Source: a virus
Taxonomy: Duplodnaviria > Caudoviricetes
Length of the DNA: 37,871 nucleotides
Reading direction: 5' to 3' (one strand)
IMG/VR virus record: IMGVR_UViG_3300044674_002189
Coordinates: 1-37,871 of that record
The position numbers and the translations under genes are program-made. Positions 2,196 to 37,871 of this stretch are shown one piece after another (the stretch's first letter is position 1; every line of letters begins with the position of its first letter). The notes under the pieces are model-generated. The model was not told the origin of the DNA and searched no databases. It saw only the letters and a program-made list of their open reading frames with translations.

Positions 2196-3985
2196 AGCAC
2201 GACCTGCCCGATTGGAAACTTACTCTCGTGGAGTCGTCGGCGGATGTGGATGCGTTCCTCGGGTGGGTGGAGGGCGCCGTCGGGATGGTGTCTATTGACA
2301 CGGAGACGCACGGGTTGGATTGGACGGAGCGGGATTTCACTCGGCTGGTGACGTTTGCTGATGACCATCAGGGGTGGGCGGTGCCTGTCCGCTGGTGGGG
2401 CAGGCCGCTCGCTGCTGCGCTTGCACGGCTGCGAGATAAGGGCAACCCGGTTGCGTTTTGGAATGTCCGGTTCGATATGCATGCGTTGGAGGGCGACGGG
2501 TTCCCGGTGCCGCATTGGGCGAACGTGCATGACGGGATGGTGTTGCATCATTTGTTGGCGCCGCATGTCGGGCATTCGTTGAAGGGCGTGTCGGCTGAGG
2601 TGTTGGGCCGGTGGGCGACGACGGGGCAGAACTTGTTGAAGGCTCGGATGGCGGAGCGTGGCTGGGATTGGTCTACGGTGCCGGTCGATGAGCCTGCGTA
2701 CTGGCAGTACGGGGTGTTGGATACGTTGTTGACGCAGCGGCTGGTGCGGGAATTGACCCCGGAGGTTGAGGCCGCCGGCATGTTGAAGGCGTACGAGCGG
2801 GAGATGCACACCGCAGCGATCATGTATCGGGCCGAGGTGCGAGGCATGCGGATAGATCACCGGTATGCGGAGCAGACTAGGCGGGCGTGGCTGGCTCGGT
2901 CGATCGAGTTGCGAGATCATCTCGCTGCCCGTGGGGTTACGAACCCGAACTCGAATCAGCAGCTGGAGCGGGTGTTTCGTGACCTCGGGTGGGAGCCGGA
3001 CGATTTTACGGAGACAGGGCAGGCAGCCCTTGACAAGATCGTGCTCGGCCAGTTGGCTAAACGGCACCCGGACATCGCCCCGCAGATCATTGAATACAAG
3101 CGGTTGACGAAGTGGATCGGGGCGTATCTGGAGCCGTTTGCTGCGTCGAAGGGGCGGGTGCATCCGTCGATCAACACGTTGCGGGCGAAGACGGGGCGCA
3201 TGTCTATCACGAACCCGGCGTTGCAGACGTTGCCGTCGAAGGGTAGCGGCGGGGAGATTCGTAGGTGTGTGTTGCCGGAGCCGGGGTGCGAGTTGTGGGC
3301 GATCGACTATGATTCCCAAGAGGCCAGGGTGGTGGCTTGTTTGGCGGGAGATGAGGGGCTGCTCGATGCCTTTCGGGCGGGGGAAGACATGTATACCCAC
3401 ATTGCCCGGATGGCATGGAACGATCCGACCATCGGCAAGGGTGACGCCAGGCGGTCTACGGCTAAGGTAATCATGCTTGCCCTCCTATACGGGGCGGGGC
3501 CTTCGACGTTGGCGGCATCTTCGGGGCTGTCCGTCCTAGAAGTCCAGCGCTTTCTTGCCAGTGTTTATGCGAAGTTCCCGGGCATACGAGAAGCCACCGG
3601 CGACTTCGCTATCGGCGGCACGTACCCGGGGAAGCCAGCCCTGATGGCCGAGAAGCGGGCATCTACCGAGGGCCTGGCGTACGTCATGACTCGGGGGGGT
3701 CGCCGCTTCTCGATGCCCGACGGTGAATATTACAAGGCAGTGAACGGCCTGGCTCAGGGGTCGTCGGCGGACATGCTGAAAGATGCTATAATTAGACTAG
3801 ACCGGGCCGGGTTGTCAGATACCCTGATCGTTGTGGTTCACGATGAGTTGGTCTTGAACATTCCTACAGGAGAATCGAACATGGCATACGAAATCAGAGC
3901 CCTCATGGAGGATGACTCGTGGGAGATTCCCATGACCGCCGACGTTGAGGGGCCGTTCGCTCATTGGGGAGAGGCTTATGCCTAA
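2192..3985 (+). CDS. polA: DNA polymerase family A with 3'-5' exonuclease domain
   Basis: ExoI IDTET, ExoII NVRFD, ExoIII YGVLD; TGRMS..NPALQ; motif A DYDSQEAR, motif B RSTAKVIMLALLYG, motif C VHDEL. Confidence 0.97.
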   Translation: MKHDLPDWKLTLVESSADVDAFLGWVEGAVGMVSIDTETHGLDWTERDFTRLVTFADDHQGWAVPVRWWGRPLAAALARLRDKGNPVAFWNVRFDMHALEGDGFPVPHWANVHDGMVLHHLLAPHVGHSLKGVSAEVLGRWATTGQNLLKARMAERGWDWSTVPVDEPAYWQYGVLDTLLTQRLVRELTPEVEAAGMLKAYEREMHTAAIMYRAEVRGMRIDHRYAEQTRRAWLARSIELRDHLAARGVTNPNSNQQLERVFRDLGWEPDDFTETGQAALDKIVLGQLAKRHPDIAPQIIEYKRLTKWIGAYLEPFAASKGRVHPSINTLRAKTGRMSITNPALQTLPSKGSGGEIRRCVLPEPGCELWAIDYDSQEARVVACLAGDEGLLDAFRAGEDMYTHIARMAWNDPTIGKGDARRSTAKVIMLALLYGAGPSTLAASSGLSVLEVQRFLASVYAKFPGIREATGDFAIGGTYPGKPALMAEKRASTEGLAYVMTRGGRRFSMPDGEYYKAVNGLAQGSSADMLKDAIIRLDRAGLSDTLIVVVHDELVLNIPTGESNMAYEIRALMEDDSWEIPMTADVEGPFAHWGEAYA

Positions 3986-4463
3986 TACCAGAAAGTTTAC
4001 CCCGGAACAAGATGCCGGCCTTCGGGCCGAGTATGAGGCGGGGGCTTCGCTCGCCCGCCTGGGGAGGGAGCGTTCGGTTTCAGCTACAGCTATAAAGAAC
4101 GCTATTCTCCGGGCGGGCGGGTCTATCCGTCCTGAAGGTTCCGGCCCGAGGAGTTACGCATGGAAGGGGGGCACCCACTACACCAGTTCCGGCTACGTCA
4201 TGGAACACTGCTTGGAGGGGCCTCATGCCGCTATGGCTACGAAGGGCGGGTATGCCCCGCAGCATCGCCTACGCATGGCCGAGAAACTCGGAAGGGACCT
4301 GCGCCCCCAAGAGAACGTCCATCACATCAACGGGGTGCGGGACGATAACCGCATCGAGAACCTAGAGTTGTGGTCCCGGGACCAGCCAGCGGGCCAGCGG
4401 GTAGCTGACAAGGTGGCGTGGGCCAGAGAGATCATTGAACTATACGGGGAAGCCTATGAGTGA
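3978..4463 (+). CDS. free-standing HNH endonuclease with N-terminal HTH
   Basis: ATG 3978 after GGAGAGG; HRL.M...LGR.L...ENVHHINGVRDDNRIENLELW. Confidence 0.92.
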   Translation: MPNTRKFTPEQDAGLRAEYEAGASLARLGRERSVSATAIKNAILRAGGSIRPEGSGPRSYAWKGGTHYTSSGYVMEHCLEGPHAAMATKGGYAPQHRLRMAEKLGRDLRPQENVHHINGVRDDNRIENLELWSRDQPAGQRVADKVAWAREIIELYGEAYE

Positions 4464-4701
4464 GTACGATGAGGAAGTTGCCCGTCACGTTGCCGCCATT
4501 GGTGATGCGTTGCCGGACGTCACGTTGTTGGAGCGGTGGAAGGCGATCAATTCGCTGCTAGATTACCGGCTGGCGAACCGGTCGGATCTGGTGGCTACGA
4601 TGCTGGTGGATCTGATTCTGGAACGCATAGCGGACACGGTGCGTAGCTTGATCCCTCGGGAAGAACTTGAGAAGTTGTTGTCTACTGTGGAGTTGCGATG
4701 A
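4456..4701 (+). CDS. hypothetical helical protein
   Basis: ATG 4456 overlaps the HNH end; its stop is ATGA-coupled to the helicase start. Confidence 0.7.
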   Translation: MSEYDEEVARHVAAIGDALPDVTLLERWKAINSLLDYRLANRSDLVATMLVDLILERIADTVRSLIPREELEKLLSTVELR

Positions 4702-6800
4702 TCGAGGTTCATGCAGACCCGCACTCGATGCGGTTAGAGGTTCGGGCGCCGTCTCGGTTGGCTGACATCATCGGCCGGATTTCCGGGTTGAAGGTTGACG
4801 CTCAGGCCGGGTGTTGGGCTGGCCCTATCACCCCGCAGGTGATGTTGGCGGTCGCTAATGATCTCGGCAAGTTGTCCGGGTTCACTCCAACGCCGGAAGC
4901 TAACTCGTTGATGTCTGCGATTCAGGCTACCCGTAGTCAGATGATTGCGATCAAGGGCGGGTCGATACCTGCTGCACTTACGGAGAGGATAGATAAGTAT
5001 GAGCAAGAAATACAGCCGAACATGCGAGCGATGCGCCGCCCCGTTTCAGGGGTGGAGCAGGGAGCAGAGGTTCTGCTCTCGGACCTGCCATCTGCGGACA
5101 CGGAACACGCCGGAGAGGAACGCTCGGATTGCTCGGGAGACAGCGGAGAAGCGGGGGGACGCCTTGCGGGATCGTGGGGAGGGCAAGACGTACCGGAAGC
5201 GGAACGGGGTACACGAACATCGGCTAGTGGCGGAGCAGATGTTGGGCCGTCCGCTGGAGCCGGGGGAGATAGTGCACCACATCGACCACGACAAGCGGAA
5301 CAACGACCCGGCAAACCTACAGGTGATGACGCAAGCGGAGCACATGAGGCTGCACCTGCACTGAGGTTGTTTGAGTACCAGCGGCGAGGGATCGCAGTGA
5401 TGATCTCCCGACGAGGGTGCCTCCTCGGGGATGAGATGGGTCTAGGAAAGAGCGTTCAAGGGCTGGCTGCTGCTCGCATCGTGGGCGCCACCGCTACGCT
5501 GATCGTGTGCCCTAACTCTATGAAGTACCGGTGGGTGGATGAGGCGAAGCTGTGGTACCCCGACGCTGTCGGCATCGTGGTGAACGGCACCGCCAAACAG
5601 AAACAGGAAGCGCTGGATCAGGCCGCAGAACACATCGCCGCCGGCACCCCCGTGGTGGTGGCAGTGAACTGGGAGTCGTTGCGTACTCTGTCTCGGGTCG
5701 CAGGGTACGGGTCGCAGAAGCTGTCCGACAAGGAGAAGACGCCGGGTCCGTTGAATGCTATTGACTGGGATGTGGTGATAGCGGACGAGGCGCACCGTGC
5801 GAAGGACGCTAGCTCGAAACAGACTCGGGCTCTGTGGGCGGTGGCTCAGAATGCACGGTGGCGGTGGGCGTTGACGGGTACGCCGGTGTTGAATACGCCG
5901 GGGGATTTGTGGGCGATCGGTAGGTTCTATGACCCGGCGACGTACGGGGATTCCCGGCACAAGTGGCACAATTCTTATGTGGCGTACATCGAAACGAACT
6001 GGGGGCCGAAGGACATCGGGTTGCGGCAGGACCGCAAGGACTTGTTTGAGGCGTGGTTTGATATGAACTTTGTGCGCCGCACGAAGGACGAGGTGTTGGA
6101 TCTGCCGCCGGTCACCTATCAGACTCGGACGGTGGAGTTGCATCAGAAGCAGCGGACGGCGTACAACCGGATGGTGAAGGACTTGATCGTTGCGATTGAC
6201 GACGGCATTCTGGTGGCGACTGACCCGCTGGCGTTGCTGATTCGGTTGTCGCAGATCGCGTCGGCTACTCCGGTCGTGAACGACGACGGCGATGTGGTTG
6301 CGTTGGACACGCCGTCGAACAAGATCACGGCGCTGTTTGAGGTGTTGGACGAGTTGGGTGAGGACCGGCCGGTGGCCGTGTTTGCTCAGTCTCGTAAGCT
6401 GGTGGAGTTGGCGTGTTCGGAACTGGACCGCAAAGGAATTTCGACTGCGATGATTACCGGGGCGGTTGACCCGGCGCTGAGAGAAGCTAACGTGCAGCGG
6501 TTTCAAAGAGGGGATGCGCGTGTGGCTTTGGTGACTCTCGGTGCCGGGTCGGAGGGTATCAACTTGTTTGCGGCTGACACGGCCGTGTTCTTGCAGCGCA
6601 GCTACAGCTTTGGGCAGTCGTTGCAGGCGGAGGCTCGCATTCATCGCATCGGTCAGGAGTCCGATCATGTCACGATCATTGATCTTGTGTCGGAGGATAC
6701 GGTTGACGAGGCAGTGATTGAGGCTTTACGATCCAAAGGGGAGATGTCTGAGCAGGTCTTGCGTGACCAGGCTCGGGCGTTGCTGGAGCAAAGGGTTTGA
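4698..6800 (+). CDS. SNF2-family (SF2) helicase with a ~125-codon insert from a nested HNH gene
   Basis: Q motif LFEYQ, Walker A DEMGLGKS, DEAH, LTGTP, GSEGINL, QAEARIHRIGQ. Confidence 0.93.
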   Translation: MIEVHADPHSMRLEVRAPSRLADIIGRISGLKVDAQAGCWAGPITPQVMLAVANDLGKLSGFTPTPEANSLMSAIQATRSQMIAIKGGSIPAALTERIDKYEQEIQPNMRAMRRPVSGVEQGAEVLLSDLPSADTEHAGEERSDCSGDSGEAGGRLAGSWGGQDVPEAERGTRTSASGGADVGPSAGAGGDSAPHRPRQAEQRPGKPTGDDASGAHEAAPALRLFEYQRRGIAVMISRRGCLLGDEMGLGKSVQGLAAARIVGATATLIVCPNSMKYRWVDEAKLWYPDAVGIVVNGTAKQKQEALDQAAEHIAAGTPVVVAVNWESLRTLSRVAGYGSQKLSDKEKTPGPLNAIDWDVVIADEAHRAKDASSKQTRALWAVAQNARWRWALTGTPVLNTPGDLWAIGRFYDPATYGDSRHKWHNSYVAYIETNWGPKDIGLRQDRKDLFEAWFDMNFVRRTKDEVLDLPPVTYQTRTVELHQKQRTAYNRMVKDLIVAIDDGILVATDPLALLIRLSQIASATPVVNDDGDVVALDTPSNKITALFEVLDELGEDRPVAVFAQSRKLVELACSELDRKGISTAMITGAVDPALREANVQRFQRGDARVALVTLGAGSEGINLFAADTAVFLQRSYSFGQSLQAEARIHRIGQESDHVTIIDLVSEDTVDEAVIEALRSKGEMSEQVLRDQARALLEQRV
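4999..5364 (+). CDS. HNH homing endonuclease nested in the +1 frame of the helicase
   Basis: Own SD (GGAGAGG) and ATG; CxxC...FCSRTC zinc motif; EHRLVAEQMLGRPL...EIVHHIDHDKRNNDPANL. Confidence 0.92.
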   Translation: MSKKYSRTCERCAAPFQGWSREQRFCSRTCHLRTRNTPERNARIARETAEKRGDALRDRGEGKTYRKRNGVHEHRLVAEQMLGRPLEPGEIVHHIDHDKRNNDPANLQVMTQAEHMRLHLH

Positions 6801-26071: not shown

Positions 26072-26422
26072 TTACGCCGGGTCGCCTTTGCCGTGTAGGA
26101 TAGAGACTCGGATGTCGGTGGATGCGCCGGAGGCGATGGCCCATACTTCGTCTGAGTAGAGGATGTTCATTTCTTTGTATCCGCCGGCGGGGATGGGTAG
26201 GCCGTTGGCGGTGGTGACGTCTGACCCTGATCCGATGTATAGGAGTTGGCTGGCGTGTGCGTTGTGGATGATTACTTCTCGGGGGACGTCGATGGTGCCG
26301 CCGATGGTGGCGATGTCTGGGCCGGATTGGTTTCCTCCGGCGCCTTCGATGAGTACAATGGCGGATGTGCCTACGGAGACTGCGTAGTTGTCGTTTTGGG
26401 ATTGGGCGATGGTTTCAGACAT
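26072..26422 (-). CDS. stand-alone ~115-aa beta-rich structural module, paralog 4
   Basis: MSETIAQS...VGTSA...HNAH.SQ.LY.G.GSDV...NGLPIPAG...W...HGKG shared by four adjacent genes. Confidence 0.8.
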   Translation of the reverse strand: MSETIAQSQNDNYAVSVGTSAIVLIEGAGGNQSGPDIATIGGTIDVPREVIIHNAHASQLLYIGSGSDVTTANGLPIPAGGYKEMNILYSDEVWAIASGASTDIRVSILHGKGDPA

Positions 26423-26437
26423 GGCTATATCCTATCA
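26420..26437 (-). promoter_or_regulatory. extended -10 leaderless promoter
   Basis: TGA-TAGGAT-ATAGCC-ATG. Confidence 0.7.
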
Positions 26438-27415
26438 TGAGAGGGTGATACCCCACTTGTCTGCCAGATAGCTTTCGGTGTCGCTGATCTGCTGCGCCGT
26501 CAACGTGCCATCCACGACAATGACTTCGGCAATATCACCGACCGGCCGAAGAAGATCCCCCGTGTAGCCGAAGGGGTCCAGCGCGTTTGTGAACGATCCG
26601 CTCAGCTCCACCGTCACAACTTTTGTAGACGAAGCAAGTTCATCGTAAATGTCGCCGCGAGTCGTCCCAGAAAACGGTGTCCCATCAAACCGAAGCGACA
26701 TCGTGCCCATATTTCCGGTCAATGTTGTGAGTGAGCTACCAGATTGGCCAACGCCTGCGTAGGTGAGGTCCTGATTTGTACCCAACAAAACGAAGTTTTG
26801 AGACGAATGCCGGAACACAGCGATCATCGTCAACCCCGTAAAAGCAAGACTTGGTGACACCATCGAGTCGTTGTCGTAATGGAGGACGTTCAAGCCGTTG
26901 ATCGTGTCCGTGCCTGTCGTGGGCTGCAACGAAGCCGTCGCTTGAGTCAGGTGGTAGCCGTTGCCTGACAGGTCGTCCCACTGCGACACGGCCCCGCCTG
27001 ATTCGGTGATCGTAGACTCGTCGGATGCGTCGAGCCACAACGCCGGAGACAAATCCAACGGAGAGAACGTAGTCGCACCTTTGCCGTGCAGCACGTACAC
27101 TCGGGTGTCCGTAGAAGCCCCCGAAGCGATAGCCCACAACTCGTCGTCATACCAGGCCCGAAGCGTGCGATGCTCTCCGGCAGGGATCGGCAAACCGTTA
27201 GACGTAGAAACGTCAGACCCCCACCCGACGTACAGCACCTGCGACCCGTGGTTGTTGTGTACCGTAATGTAGCGGGGCATGTTGATTGTGCCGCCGACCG
27301 TGATAACGCCGGACCCGGAGTGGCGGCGGCCTCCGCCTTTGGCGAGCACGACAGCGGAGGTGCCTACCGATTTGCCGTAGTTTTCGCTGGATGATTGTGC
27401 GATTGTTTCAGACAT
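26435..27415 (-). CDS. structural module fused to a LamG/concanavalin-like domain, paralog 3
   Basis: True start ATG 27415 (TAATG overlap); LWLDASD...VSQWDDLSGNG...E.IV....L......E.YLA.KWG. Confidence 0.8.
   Translation of the reverse strand: MSETIAQSSSENYGKSVGTSAVVLAKGGGRRHSGSGVITVGGTINMPRYITVHNNHGSQVLYVGWGSDVSTSNGLPIPAGEHRTLRAWYDDELWAIASGASTDTRVYVLHGKGATTFSPLDLSPALWLDASDESTITESGGAVSQWDDLSGNGYHLTQATASLQPTTGTDTINGLNVLHYDNDSMVSPSLAFTGLTMIAVFRHSSQNFVLLGTNQDLTYAGVGQSGSSLTTLTGNMGTMSLRFDGTPFSGTTRGDIYDELASSTKVVTVELSGSFTNALDPFGYTGDLLRPVGDIAEVIVVDGTLTAQQISDTESYLADKWGITLS
26451..26509. repeat. 59-bp exact direct repeat, copy A (copy B at 27772-27830)
   Basis: ccccacttgtctgccagatagctttcggtgtcgctgatctgctgcgccgtcaacgtgcc occurs twice. 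Confidence 0.92.
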
Positions 27416-27759
27416 TATGTGCCCTTTCCGTGCAACACGTACACTCGGGTGTCCGTAGCCGCCCCCGACCCGACACCCCACAACTCGTCCGTATACAACA
27501 AATCAAACTCCATGTACCCGCCCGCAGCGATCGGAAACCCCGAAGACGAAGTAACATCCGAACCCCACCCGACATACAACACCTGCGAAGCGTGAGCGTT
27601 ATGCACCACCACGCTCCGAGGCACGTTGATCGTGCCGCCAACCGTAACAATACCCGACCCTGACTGGCCGTTCCCGCCGCCCTTCACCAACACAACAGCG
27701 GAAGTGCCAACCGACTTTGCGTACGTGTCGCTCTGCGACTGTGCGATTGTTTCAGACAT
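27415..27759 (-). CDS. stand-alone structural module, paralog 2
   Basis: True start ATG 27759 (TAATG overlap); same module, ending HGKGT. Confidence 0.8.
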   Translation of the reverse strand: MSETIAQSQSDTYAKSVGTSAVVLVKGGGNGQSGSGIVTVGGTINVPRSVVVHNAHASQVLYVGWGSDVTSSSGFPIAAGGYMEFDLLYTDELWGVGSGAATDTRVYVLHGKGT

Positions 27760-28754
27760 TAGATCGTGATCCCCCACTTGTCTGCCAGATAGCTTTCGGT
27801 GTCGCTGATCTGCTGCGCCGTCAACGTGCCGTCCACAACGATCAACTCGGCAATCGTGCCATCCCATTGACGACCGGTTGCAGCTTGGTTACCGACATCT
27901 AAAACAGTCATCCCAGAGGTTCCTGCGTCACCTGAAACATCAAGCGATCCGTCCACATAAATGGACGACGAGGTTGAGTCAGCCGTGTATCGGAAAAGCA
28001 AACCGGTAGACAACGCTAGCGATGTGCTGCCTTGAAGATTTGTGCCGGAATACAGTCGAGCGGTTTGATTGATTGCCTGGAATGCTGTTGAACTTCCGTT
28101 TACAAGAAACTGCGGAGTAGCTCCTGACGTATCTAGCGTAGCTACAGCGAACAAGGTTATAGGTTGCGAAATATTGAACGACGCTGCCGATATGACATCA
28201 TTCGGAATGAAGTCGAGGACGTTCAGGCCATTCAGCGTGCGGGTGCCCGTTGTCGGCTGCAACGAAGCCGTCGCTTGAGTCAAGTTGTTGCCATTACCGG
28301 ACTTGTCATCCCACTGCGAAACGGCACCGCCACCCGGCCCCGACAACGTAGACTCATCCGACGCATCCAACCACAACGCCGGAGACAAAGACAACACGTC
28401 AAACGTCGTCGGATTACCCTTACCATGAACAACCGACACCAACGCAACAGTGTCCGCACCCGAAGCAACCGCCCACATCTCATCCAAATACGACAACCGA
28501 AACTTACGAGACTCACCCGCAGGAACCGGCAAACCATTCGAAGTCGAAACATCCGAACCCCAACCCACATACAACACCTGCGACCCATGCGAATTATGAA
28601 CCGACACCACACGAGGCAACTCGATCGTCCAACCAACCGACGCAATAGACGAACCCGAATGATTCATCCCAGCACCCACCACCAACACGAGAGCGGACGT
28701 GCCAACCGTCGTAGCATACGAATCGTTCTGCGACTCAGAAATCAACTCAGACAT
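27759..28754 (-). CDS. structural module fused to a LamG/concanavalin-like domain, paralog 1
   Basis: Same architecture as 26435-27415. Confidence 0.8.
   Translation of the reverse strand: MSELISESQNDSYATTVGTSALVLVVGAGMNHSGSSIASVGWTIELPRVVSVHNSHGSQVLYVGWGSDVSTSNGLPVPAGESRKFRLSYLDEMWAVASGADTVALVSVVHGKGNPTTFDVLSLSPALWLDASDESTLSGPGGGAVSQWDDKSGNGNNLTQATASLQPTTGTRTLNGLNVLDFIPNDVISAASFNISQPITLFAVATLDTSGATPQFLVNGSSTAFQAINQTARLYSGTNLQGSTSLALSTGLLFRYTADSTSSSIYVDGSLDVSGDAGTSGMTVLDVGNQAATGRQWDGTIAELIVVDGTLTAQQISDTESYLADKWGITI
27772..27830. repeat. 59-bp exact direct repeat, copy B
   Basis: Identical to 26451-26509. A second 28-bp exact pair lies at 26922-26949 and 28255-28282. Confidence 0.92.
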
Positions 28755-37482: not shown

Positions 37483-37498
37483 AAATTCAATCATATCA
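37480..37498 (-). promoter_or_regulatory. extended -10 leaderless promoter (terS)
   Basis: TGA-TATGAT-TGAATTT-ATG (7-nt spacer). Confidence 0.62.
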
Positions 37499-37871
37499 TC
37501 TTAGCTAGCGCGCCGGTCAGGTATCTGCGAGCCCGAGTCAGCAACTCCGGATTATCTTGAAACATCCCCAGCCCGGTGTTGCATTGAGCGCACAGCAGCC
37601 CCCGCACCTCGCCGGTTTCGTGGTCGTGATCTACACACAGAATGTCGTTATACGGTACGGTATTGCATATACGGCATTTTCCTTCCAGCAAATCCGACCA
37701 CCACAAGTACCACGGGCCGCTCAGGTTATACTTATACTTCAGTTTCTTACGTCTCGGAGCAGACAACCGCTCCCTAGCATCCGCATAGCACGCCGGACAA
37801 TGATCCAACTTAGTCTTATTACGCCCCCCACACGTCGGACAAGCCCGACGAAGATTCGCAGCCTCCTTCTG
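37491..37871 (-). CDS. endonuclease VII-family nuclease (5' end outside window)
   Basis: GKCRIC...VDHDHETGEVRGLLCAQCNTGLG.FQDN; frame stays open to the window edge with another CPTC. Confidence 0.9.
   Translation of the reverse strand, partial: QKEAANLRRACPTCGGRNKTKLDHCPACYADARERLSAPRRKKLKYKYNLSGPWYLWWSDLLEGKCRICNTVPYNDILCVDHDHETGEVRGLLCAQCNTGLGMFQDNPELLTRARRYLTGALAKMI

Follow-up and report, generated by a model that had tools for sequence, protein, structure and literature searches.

An HNH endonuclease gene nested in a shifted frame within a phage SNF2-family helicase gene

Described nested endonuclease genes and the helicase locus

The closest described relatives of the element reported here are hidden, out-of-frame HNH endonuclease genes in mycobacteriophage methylases and a helicase-methylase (the ShiLan domain; Pacc40 gp60), presented without experiments by Arsenault, Gosselin and Gogarten in 2025 (PMC11855218). 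We analysed a stretch of 37,871 nucleotides, i.e., positions 1 to 37,871 of the virus record IMGVR_UViG_3300044674_002189 (Duplodnaviria; Caudoviricetes), hereafter called the window, in which an HNH gene lies in the +1 frame of an SNF2-family helicase gene. The initial annotation of this DNA took the arrangement for an undescribed strategy, which was not borne out, since the same strategy was published for phage methylases in the 2025 study. That is, the principle is already known, while host gene and frame differ from the published cases.

Other known systems share single traits with the locus. In Aeh1, nrdA is split by mobE into two open reading frames (ORFs), while in the bypassing of T4 gene 60 the take-off and landing codons match and a stop directly follows the former. 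The accessible part of PMC10448857 mentions Aeh1 mobE in nrdA. Free-standing endonucleases (T4 seg, mob) home intronlessly with distant cut sites and co-conversion of the flanks, and MobA and MobE nick, according to the accessible part of PMC2988022. Finally, the accessible part of Gosselin et al. (bioRxiv 10.1101/2025.01.02.630785) describes non-canonical inteins, among them types with an in-frame HNH and with an out-of-frame Endo VII.

The features of the locus are:

4698..6800, + strand: SNF2-family helicase ORF, open for all 700 codons; phrog_62; SNF2 fold of the core
4698..4964, + strand: helicase N-terminal domain (residues 1-89), conserved in the family; predicted local distance difference test score (pLDDT) of 95
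4982..4988, + strand: Shine-Dalgarno-like GGAGAGG of the HNH gene, spaced 10 nt from the ATG; codes for Thr-Glu-Arg in the helicase frame
4989..5366, + strand: apparent insertion of 378 nt, i.e., 126 helicase codons; the junctions may be off by a few codons
4999..5364, + strand: HNH endonuclease gene of 121 residues in the +1 frame; Pfam HNH_3, E 1e-15
5350..5361, + strand: 6-nt tandem duplication at the HNH 3' end, frame-preserving
5367..5381, + strand: helicase Q motif LFEYQ, immediately downstream of the insert; all 119 sequences compared keep Q228
5430..5453, + strand: helicase motif I, which reads DEMGLGKS here and DEMGTGKT in the most similar empty alleles; the HNH may cut in this region

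Both ORFs, their +1 offset, the GGAGAGG site and the spacing to the Q motif are present in the sequence as first annotated, and the accompanying hand counts proved exact: 10 of the 121 HNH codons end in T, 35 start with AA, AG or GA, and no helicase-frame stop arises. The HNH protein has two zinc motifs, CxxC and CxxxC, and its HNH core is intact, with C9, C12, C26, C30, H93, H94, N102, N106, H115 and H119 invariant in 30 aligned homologs. The duplex energy of its GGAGAGG (-6.6 kcal/mol) is similar to that of the helicase's own Shine-Dalgarno site (-5.9). Within the helicase, Pfam places SNF2-rel_dom at residues 227-520 and Helicase_C at residues 542-652. The insert, whose length is a multiple of three, reads in the helicase frame as a Gly/Ala/Glu/Ser-rich segment that is predicted to be disordered, and only about 10 nt of it lie outside the HNH ORF. 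TTG 5367, the Leu codon of LFEYQ, begins 2 nt after the HNH stop. Neither the HNH nor the N-domain profiles gave a sequence match to a solved structure. Databases annotate the locus either as a 700-residue ORF or as an HNH gene plus a truncated helicase of 454-466 residues; annotation with one gene per stretch misses such nested genes.

The continuity of the sequence was assessed with independent assemblies. A contig of run X8, which is not flagged as a possible source of the record, matches positions 4785-5448 with 0 differences and 0 gaps and covers the entire insert and both junctions, which excludes the assembly indel considered at the outset. All DNA runs that could be aligned as contigs (8/8, with patchy coverage) are free of joints, insert indels and the empty allele. 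The Joint Genome Institute (JGI) locus L051 shows 2 differences in 3734 bases, and an intact invaded allele was recovered from samples that span several years and studies.

We found no sign of a splicing element. With regard to inteins, there is no Pfam intein match, the junctions show neither an initial Cys/Ser nor a terminal His-Asn, and the +1 residue is Leu. For group I and II introns, Rfam gives no match at E of at most 1 within 3700-6000, and the RNA fold of the insert region is not unusual (z -1.7); the ShiLan study used RNAweasel for its intron test, where we used Rfam and folding.

Like the ShiLan domain (PMC11855218), the locus thus holds a complete, shifted HNH and zinc-finger ORF in a stop-free in-frame insert without intein or intron signal, for which a disordered loop is predicted, and the host sequence downstream of the site is echoed at the insert's 5' end. 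Homologs without the insert exist and its distribution is likewise patchy, i.e., there is a near-identical empty allele, an insert in a 39%-identical helicase, and none in 80 other viral loci. The two elements differ in several respects. The invaded gene encodes an SNF2 helicase, within a polymerase-primase cluster, and not a methylase or helicase-methylase, and the site is an inter-domain linker with a co-conversion tract of about 950 bp visible against the near-identical empty allele. The HNH has 121 residues and a Shine-Dalgarno site, compared to 195 residues and no such site found for ShiLan, to which it is 36% identical over residues 8-119 (E 7e-9). Its offset is +1 and that of ShiLan +2, so the two overlaps arose independently, and related HNH genes have overprinted host genes in both shifted frames. 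As judged from sequence, the insert belongs to the ShiLan-type class and should work like the ShiLan domain, yet it is not the ShiLan domain. Its retention in the helicase protein, and an expressed, active HNH that spares its own allele, are predictions.

Compared to the T4 seg and mob genes as covered by the accessible part of PMC2988022, the locus shares the lack of a splicing element, the HNH type, the co-converted flanks and a cut site possibly off the gene; those genes lie between genes, while the window HNH lies inside a coding frame and is known here from its sequence. The insertion of an HNH gene into a replication gene without splicing resembles the case of Aeh1 mobE, yet the host frame of the window is continuous, without a helicase-frame stop. 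With the non-canonical inteins of the bioRxiv study, in its accessible part, the locus has in common that an endonuclease ORF is overprinted on an open host frame; in contrast to them, the insert has no splicing domain. In our literature search, which covered few subscription papers and the main text of PMC11855218, no account of a comparable insert came up for a stand-alone SNF2 helicase. The locus provides a clean, testable case for a class of selfish elements described in 2025 and never bench-tested, since it offers a near-identical empty allele, a mapped conversion tract pointing to the expected cut, and homologous inserts at the same site of distant helicases.

Insert-free alleles, the divergent tract and relatives that appear to share the layout

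The insert lies in an inter-domain linker of the helicase. All other listed homologs (119/119) have 452-614 residues and align to residues 1-90 and 223-700, leaving a gap between. Of 80 viral homolog loci, 79 encode the N-domain in one frame with the core and one (L181) has it split off, so residues 1-97 are a true helicase part and not, as had been considered for residues 1-95, a gene that is separate in relatives. None of these 80 loci carries an HNH at the linker. Among 28 closer loci (two of which end before the insertion site and several of which are one contig counted twice), one is the same phage, and the insert is present in none of the other 27. Deleting 4989-5366 (126 codons) leaves 574 residues with a normal linker. 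In the AlphaFold model of the 700-residue helicase (predicted template modelling score 0.85), the domains mostly exceed a pLDDT of 90, while residues 120-214 are below 50. Profiles for the N-domain are sparse in the family (DUF5710 in 11/68 members, HARP in 1/68), and its fold match is weak, i.e., the XPB damage-recognition domain at E 0.04 and a weak HARP likeness, to be taken as a lead only. At L181:2176-2530, N-domain and core lie in two overlapping ORFs, the core having its own ATG and GGAGG; this is either a natural split at the linker or a 4-bp duplication.

An empty allele about 125 codons shorter had been predicted and was found, i.e., a cluster of five members (P0004/P0249-P0252) with 569 residues compared to the 700 of the window, from which the insert measures about 126 codons. 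The comparison also revealed a divergent segment:

4917..5861, + strand: divergent helicase block around the insert (residues 74-388); core 4917-5666, milder outer part to 5861

Identity of the cluster to the window helicase is 100% over residues 1-73, drops to 29-64% over residues 74-318, recovers to 76-89% over residues 319-395 and reaches 99-100% over residues 396-700, with the last tract difference at residue 388. This tract was mapped on proteins, and on DNA only against relatives of 83-84% identity. Recombination is required to explain a fall in identity from 100% to about 55%. We read the block of about 950 bp as a putative co-conversion tract with which the HNH gene would have arrived. 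It keeps 58 of the 63 strongly conserved helicase columns and therefore constitutes a working helicase segment. In the tree of the flanks, window helicase and P0004 cluster are sisters (100/97); in that of the tract, the window sequence branches at the base of a 31-member clade. The outer tract is nearest to P0005 (91%), which hints at a stepwise passage of the tract through related phages.

The tract is asymmetric, covering about 24 codons upstream of the insert and about 165 downstream. Such a lopsided tract suggests, as in intronless homing, a cut downstream of the insert, and we place the putative HNH cut site in the region from the Q motif to motif I/Ia. The earlier idea that the insertion disrupts its own target site is probably incomplete; a downstream cut together with replacement by an immune allele would fit the asymmetry better. 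DNA of the P0004-cluster empty allele gave no match in an exact 26-nt scan of viral contigs and none in the metagenome scan. A scan of GTDB with the tract returned two distant helicases, both insert-free.

The same layout appears to recur in two relatives. Using the helicase-frame reading of the insert as a phmmer query against 1.84 billion representatives, we obtained two matches, P0270 and P0271. The former is a tandem-repeat protein and was discarded as an insert homolog. P0271 is a 709-residue SNF2 helicase, 39% identical over 587 aligned residues, in which the N-domain is followed by a homologous insert (35%, E 6e-4), the adjoining Q motif and the core. Its +1 frame scores 65.8 bits against the HNH core (next window 9.7; two insert-free controls at most 17.1) and 51.5 bits against the block preceding that core (controls at most 24.4). 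The homologous insert at the same site is stop-free in the helicase frame, i.e., no helicase-frame stops of the kind that would speak against dual coding are seen in P0271. Given this insert and the 79/80 fused N-domains, the initial view of a frame-preserving, dual-coding insertion in an inter-domain linker without intein or recognisable intron is upheld.

P0123 is an HNH protein 82% identical to that of the window. Back-translation of its tail in the helicase frame gives the Q motif (top of 31,924 windows; 22/5000 shuffles), in register once the 6-nt tandem duplication of the window is counted, which is the sole length difference between the two sister HNHs in the aligned part. In neither P0123 nor P0271 can the HNH frame reach a stop ahead of the Q motif. 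The landing codon AGG is impossible in P0123, and P0271 has no Arg there; the P0123 codon equivalent to TTG 5367 cannot be a start codon. Since they are not kept in these relatives, the HNH stop, the AGG and the TTG of the window appear to be local accidents and not conserved signals. What seems conserved are the insertion site and the frame offset, and in P0271 also the open helicase frame. A word-based search with residues 74-320 showed no other insert-bearing helicase among its 16 matches. DNA of P0271 was looked for and not found, and that of P0123 was not among the viral HNH scans, no direct search for it having been made.

We assessed how unlikely the open helicase frame is given the HNH protein. 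With the genome's codon usage as null model, 3 of 20,000 sequences (1.5e-4) keep the frame open. This null is judged too generous because GC-rich HNH genes carry few T-ending codons anyway. Using the codon usage of the HNH gene itself, the probability is 0.026, and the synonymous shuffling proposed at the outset, done here as a permutation within the gene, gives 0.010. The depletion of T-ending codons points the same way, i.e., 0/28 at risk positions vs 10/66 elsewhere (Fisher p 0.023; 0.011 at the homolog rate). A fair p-value for the window gene alone is about 0.01-0.07, so the effect, though real, is moderate. Among homologous HNH genes (14 of 121 loci, having fewer than 100 codons, were excluded), the same frame is open in 1/14 at a GC content of at least 58% and in 0/93 at lower GC content. 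The independent relatives carry most weight here, and the open frame is probably under selection.

Proposed translation and homing, and alternative explanations

We consider it likely that the helicase is translated through the insert, which is tolerated as a loop, that the HNH protein is made from its own start, and that homing installs an immune allele. Ribosomes starting at 4698 would meet no stop, such that the default product should be the 700-residue protein. For this protein, the usual folding and docking of N-domain and ATPase core is predicted, and the insert would stay in place, unspliced, as a disordered loop about 126 residues long. The HNH would probably be translated from an internal start, using the Shine-Dalgarno site of its gene. 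When two phages infect one cell, the HNH would nick a helicase allele that lacks the insert; the likeliest place is the conserved region coding for Q motif or motif I just downstream, and repair would copy the HNH gene along with its own divergent, presumably immune, helicase segment (residues 74-388).

How the gene entered may be indicated by a degenerate direct repeat across the two junctions. It matches in 13 of 24 bases, which 0.3% of the window's 24-mers match or beat, and it was picked after the fact. It suggests a decayed target duplication, i.e., that the HNH entered by duplicating a few Q-motif codons. A more far-reaching and tentative version, which we think could hold but would not bet on, is that one +1-frame HNH lineage has long had a safe site in the linker ahead of the Q motif. 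The mobile unit would then be a cassette of about 1 kb (HNH plus immune Q motif and motifs I-II) that homes between helicases down to 39% identity, with both frames selected and a chimeric working helicase rebuilt at each step; the decayed 5' copy of the Q motif would now supply ribosome-binding site and start codon.

Some observations weigh against translation through a tolerated, selected loop. From the window gene alone, the open frame is not overwhelming, as one of the 14 GC-rich free HNH homologs shares it. The AlphaFold alignment consists of insert-free homologs, hence the model is no proof of loop tolerance. In an approximately unbiased (AU) test, a tract that is sister to the empty allele is not rejected (p 0.22; other p 0.39). 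The split of N-domain and core in L181 indicates that a split form may be viable. P0271 is a singleton cluster with an aberrant motif I (SQMGCGKS; family DEMGxGKT), so its helicase may be impaired; the change might reflect decay or a further way of escaping the nested nuclease. Furthermore, the layouts of P0271 and P0123 are derived from protein sequences alone.

An alternative we regard as improbable is a split gene in disguise, similar to Aeh1 mobE/nrdA, in which the core is produced by re-initiation at TTG 5367 or at GTG 5397/ATG 5400 and the read-through product is incidental. The position of the TTG 2 nt past the HNH stop, a Shine-Dalgarno-like site before 5397/5400, five listed database homologs that begin at or near the Q motif, and the split of L181 at the same linker with its own ATG and Shine-Dalgarno site are in accordance with it. 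On the other hand, TTG is the commonest Leu codon in the window (96/207), the Leu of LFEYQ is invariant among the 11 closest sequences, TTG 5367 lacks a well-spaced Shine-Dalgarno site, and a start at 5400 would drop the Q motif. A ribosome from upstream meets no stop, and a split gene needs no open frame. Neither does re-initiation fit P0123, in which the equivalent codon is no start, nor both relatives, in which the HNH frame runs past the Q motif; the fusion of the N-domain in 79/80 loci is contrary to a split gene as well. A minor extra start in the helicase besides 4698 may nevertheless be in use.

Still less probable in our view is that the helicase is dispensable or crippled; the phage would then put up with the insert as a parasite, and high GC content would account for the open frame in large part. 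The gene-level p-value, the deviant motif I of P0271 and the rarity of the invaded allele (0/80 other viral and 0/27 other closer loci) would agree with this. It leaves unaccounted for that stops are missing from two inserts at this site whose helicase-frame readings are only 35% alike, that the helicase motifs are conserved in the imported tract, and that the invaded allele stays intact across years and studies.

We give least credence to a skipping of the insert, i.e., T4 gene 60-like bypassing from AGG 4986 to AGG 5364 or unrecognised RNA splicing: the minor Arg codon AGG (12/178) does flank the insert, a hop between its copies would yield a helicase of normal length, and the junction-spanning repeat might be enlisted, yet no in-frame stop follows the take-off codon, skipping would exert no selection for an insert that is open and in frame, the repeat makes more sense as a decayed duplication of the target, as noted for the ShiLan site, and splicing would have neither Rfam match nor notable structure nor room for a ribozyme. 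Bypassing and re-initiation at TTG 5367, the alternatives named in the initial annotation, are both weakened, as their signals (landing AGG, start codon) are not kept in P0123 and P0271.

Genome neighbourhood and related HNH genes

The 37.9-kb record has a completeness of 94% and stems from estuary and sediment samples. Its + strand encodes polymerase A, the helicase, a PD-(D/E)XK nuclease, an AAA protein and a likely primase, while the head genes are on the - strand. No sigma-70-like promoter was found in 3700-5700. A WhiB-like ORF, recognised by eye, together with the closest cultured helicases suggests an actinobacterial host of the phage. Upstream of the helicase, a second HNH gene follows the polymerase:

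3978..4463, + strand: free-standing HNH gene after the DNA polymerase, overlapping the polymerase stop; not part of the nested element

This gene is not present in the relatives L042 and L052. Compared to these, the last ~250 polymerase codons (window ~3240-3985) show 55-72% identity, while the sequence upstream is mostly 84-98% identical. The divergent polymerase 3' end beside the HNH gene thus has the appearance of a second co-conversion tract. A third endonuclease gene (37491-37871, - strand), Endo VII-like by eye, lies upstream of the packaging genes and is cut by the record end.

Further HNH genes, several of them related to that of the window, occur in other arrangements. Phage terminase-like genes at L012, L015, L016, L019, L020 and L025 carry inteins with a related HNH in a shifted same-strand frame, and the intein frame is open even at ~37% GC content. 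This combination is outside the types given in the accessible part of 10.1101/2025.01.02.630785. A DNA methylase at L027:874-2553, from a phage of 43% GC content, contains a hidden out-of-frame HNH with a ShiLan-like offset. At L058:1320-1760, a related HNH gene follows a complete polymerase 3' end and precedes another, older copy of the final ~50 polymerase codons; this looks like an insertion that brought its own polymerase end. At L079:2363-3300, the HNH is fused in frame to the first ~20 ATPase residues at Walker A, and a fresh copy of the ATPase start follows. In both L058 and L079, related HNH genes hence lie beside duplicated host segments, comparable to the entry by duplication considered for the helicase.

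Finally, the - strand of the window contains four tandem paralogous ORFs (26072-28754) with near-identical MSE(T/L)I segments at their starts and an extra C-terminal domain in two of them.

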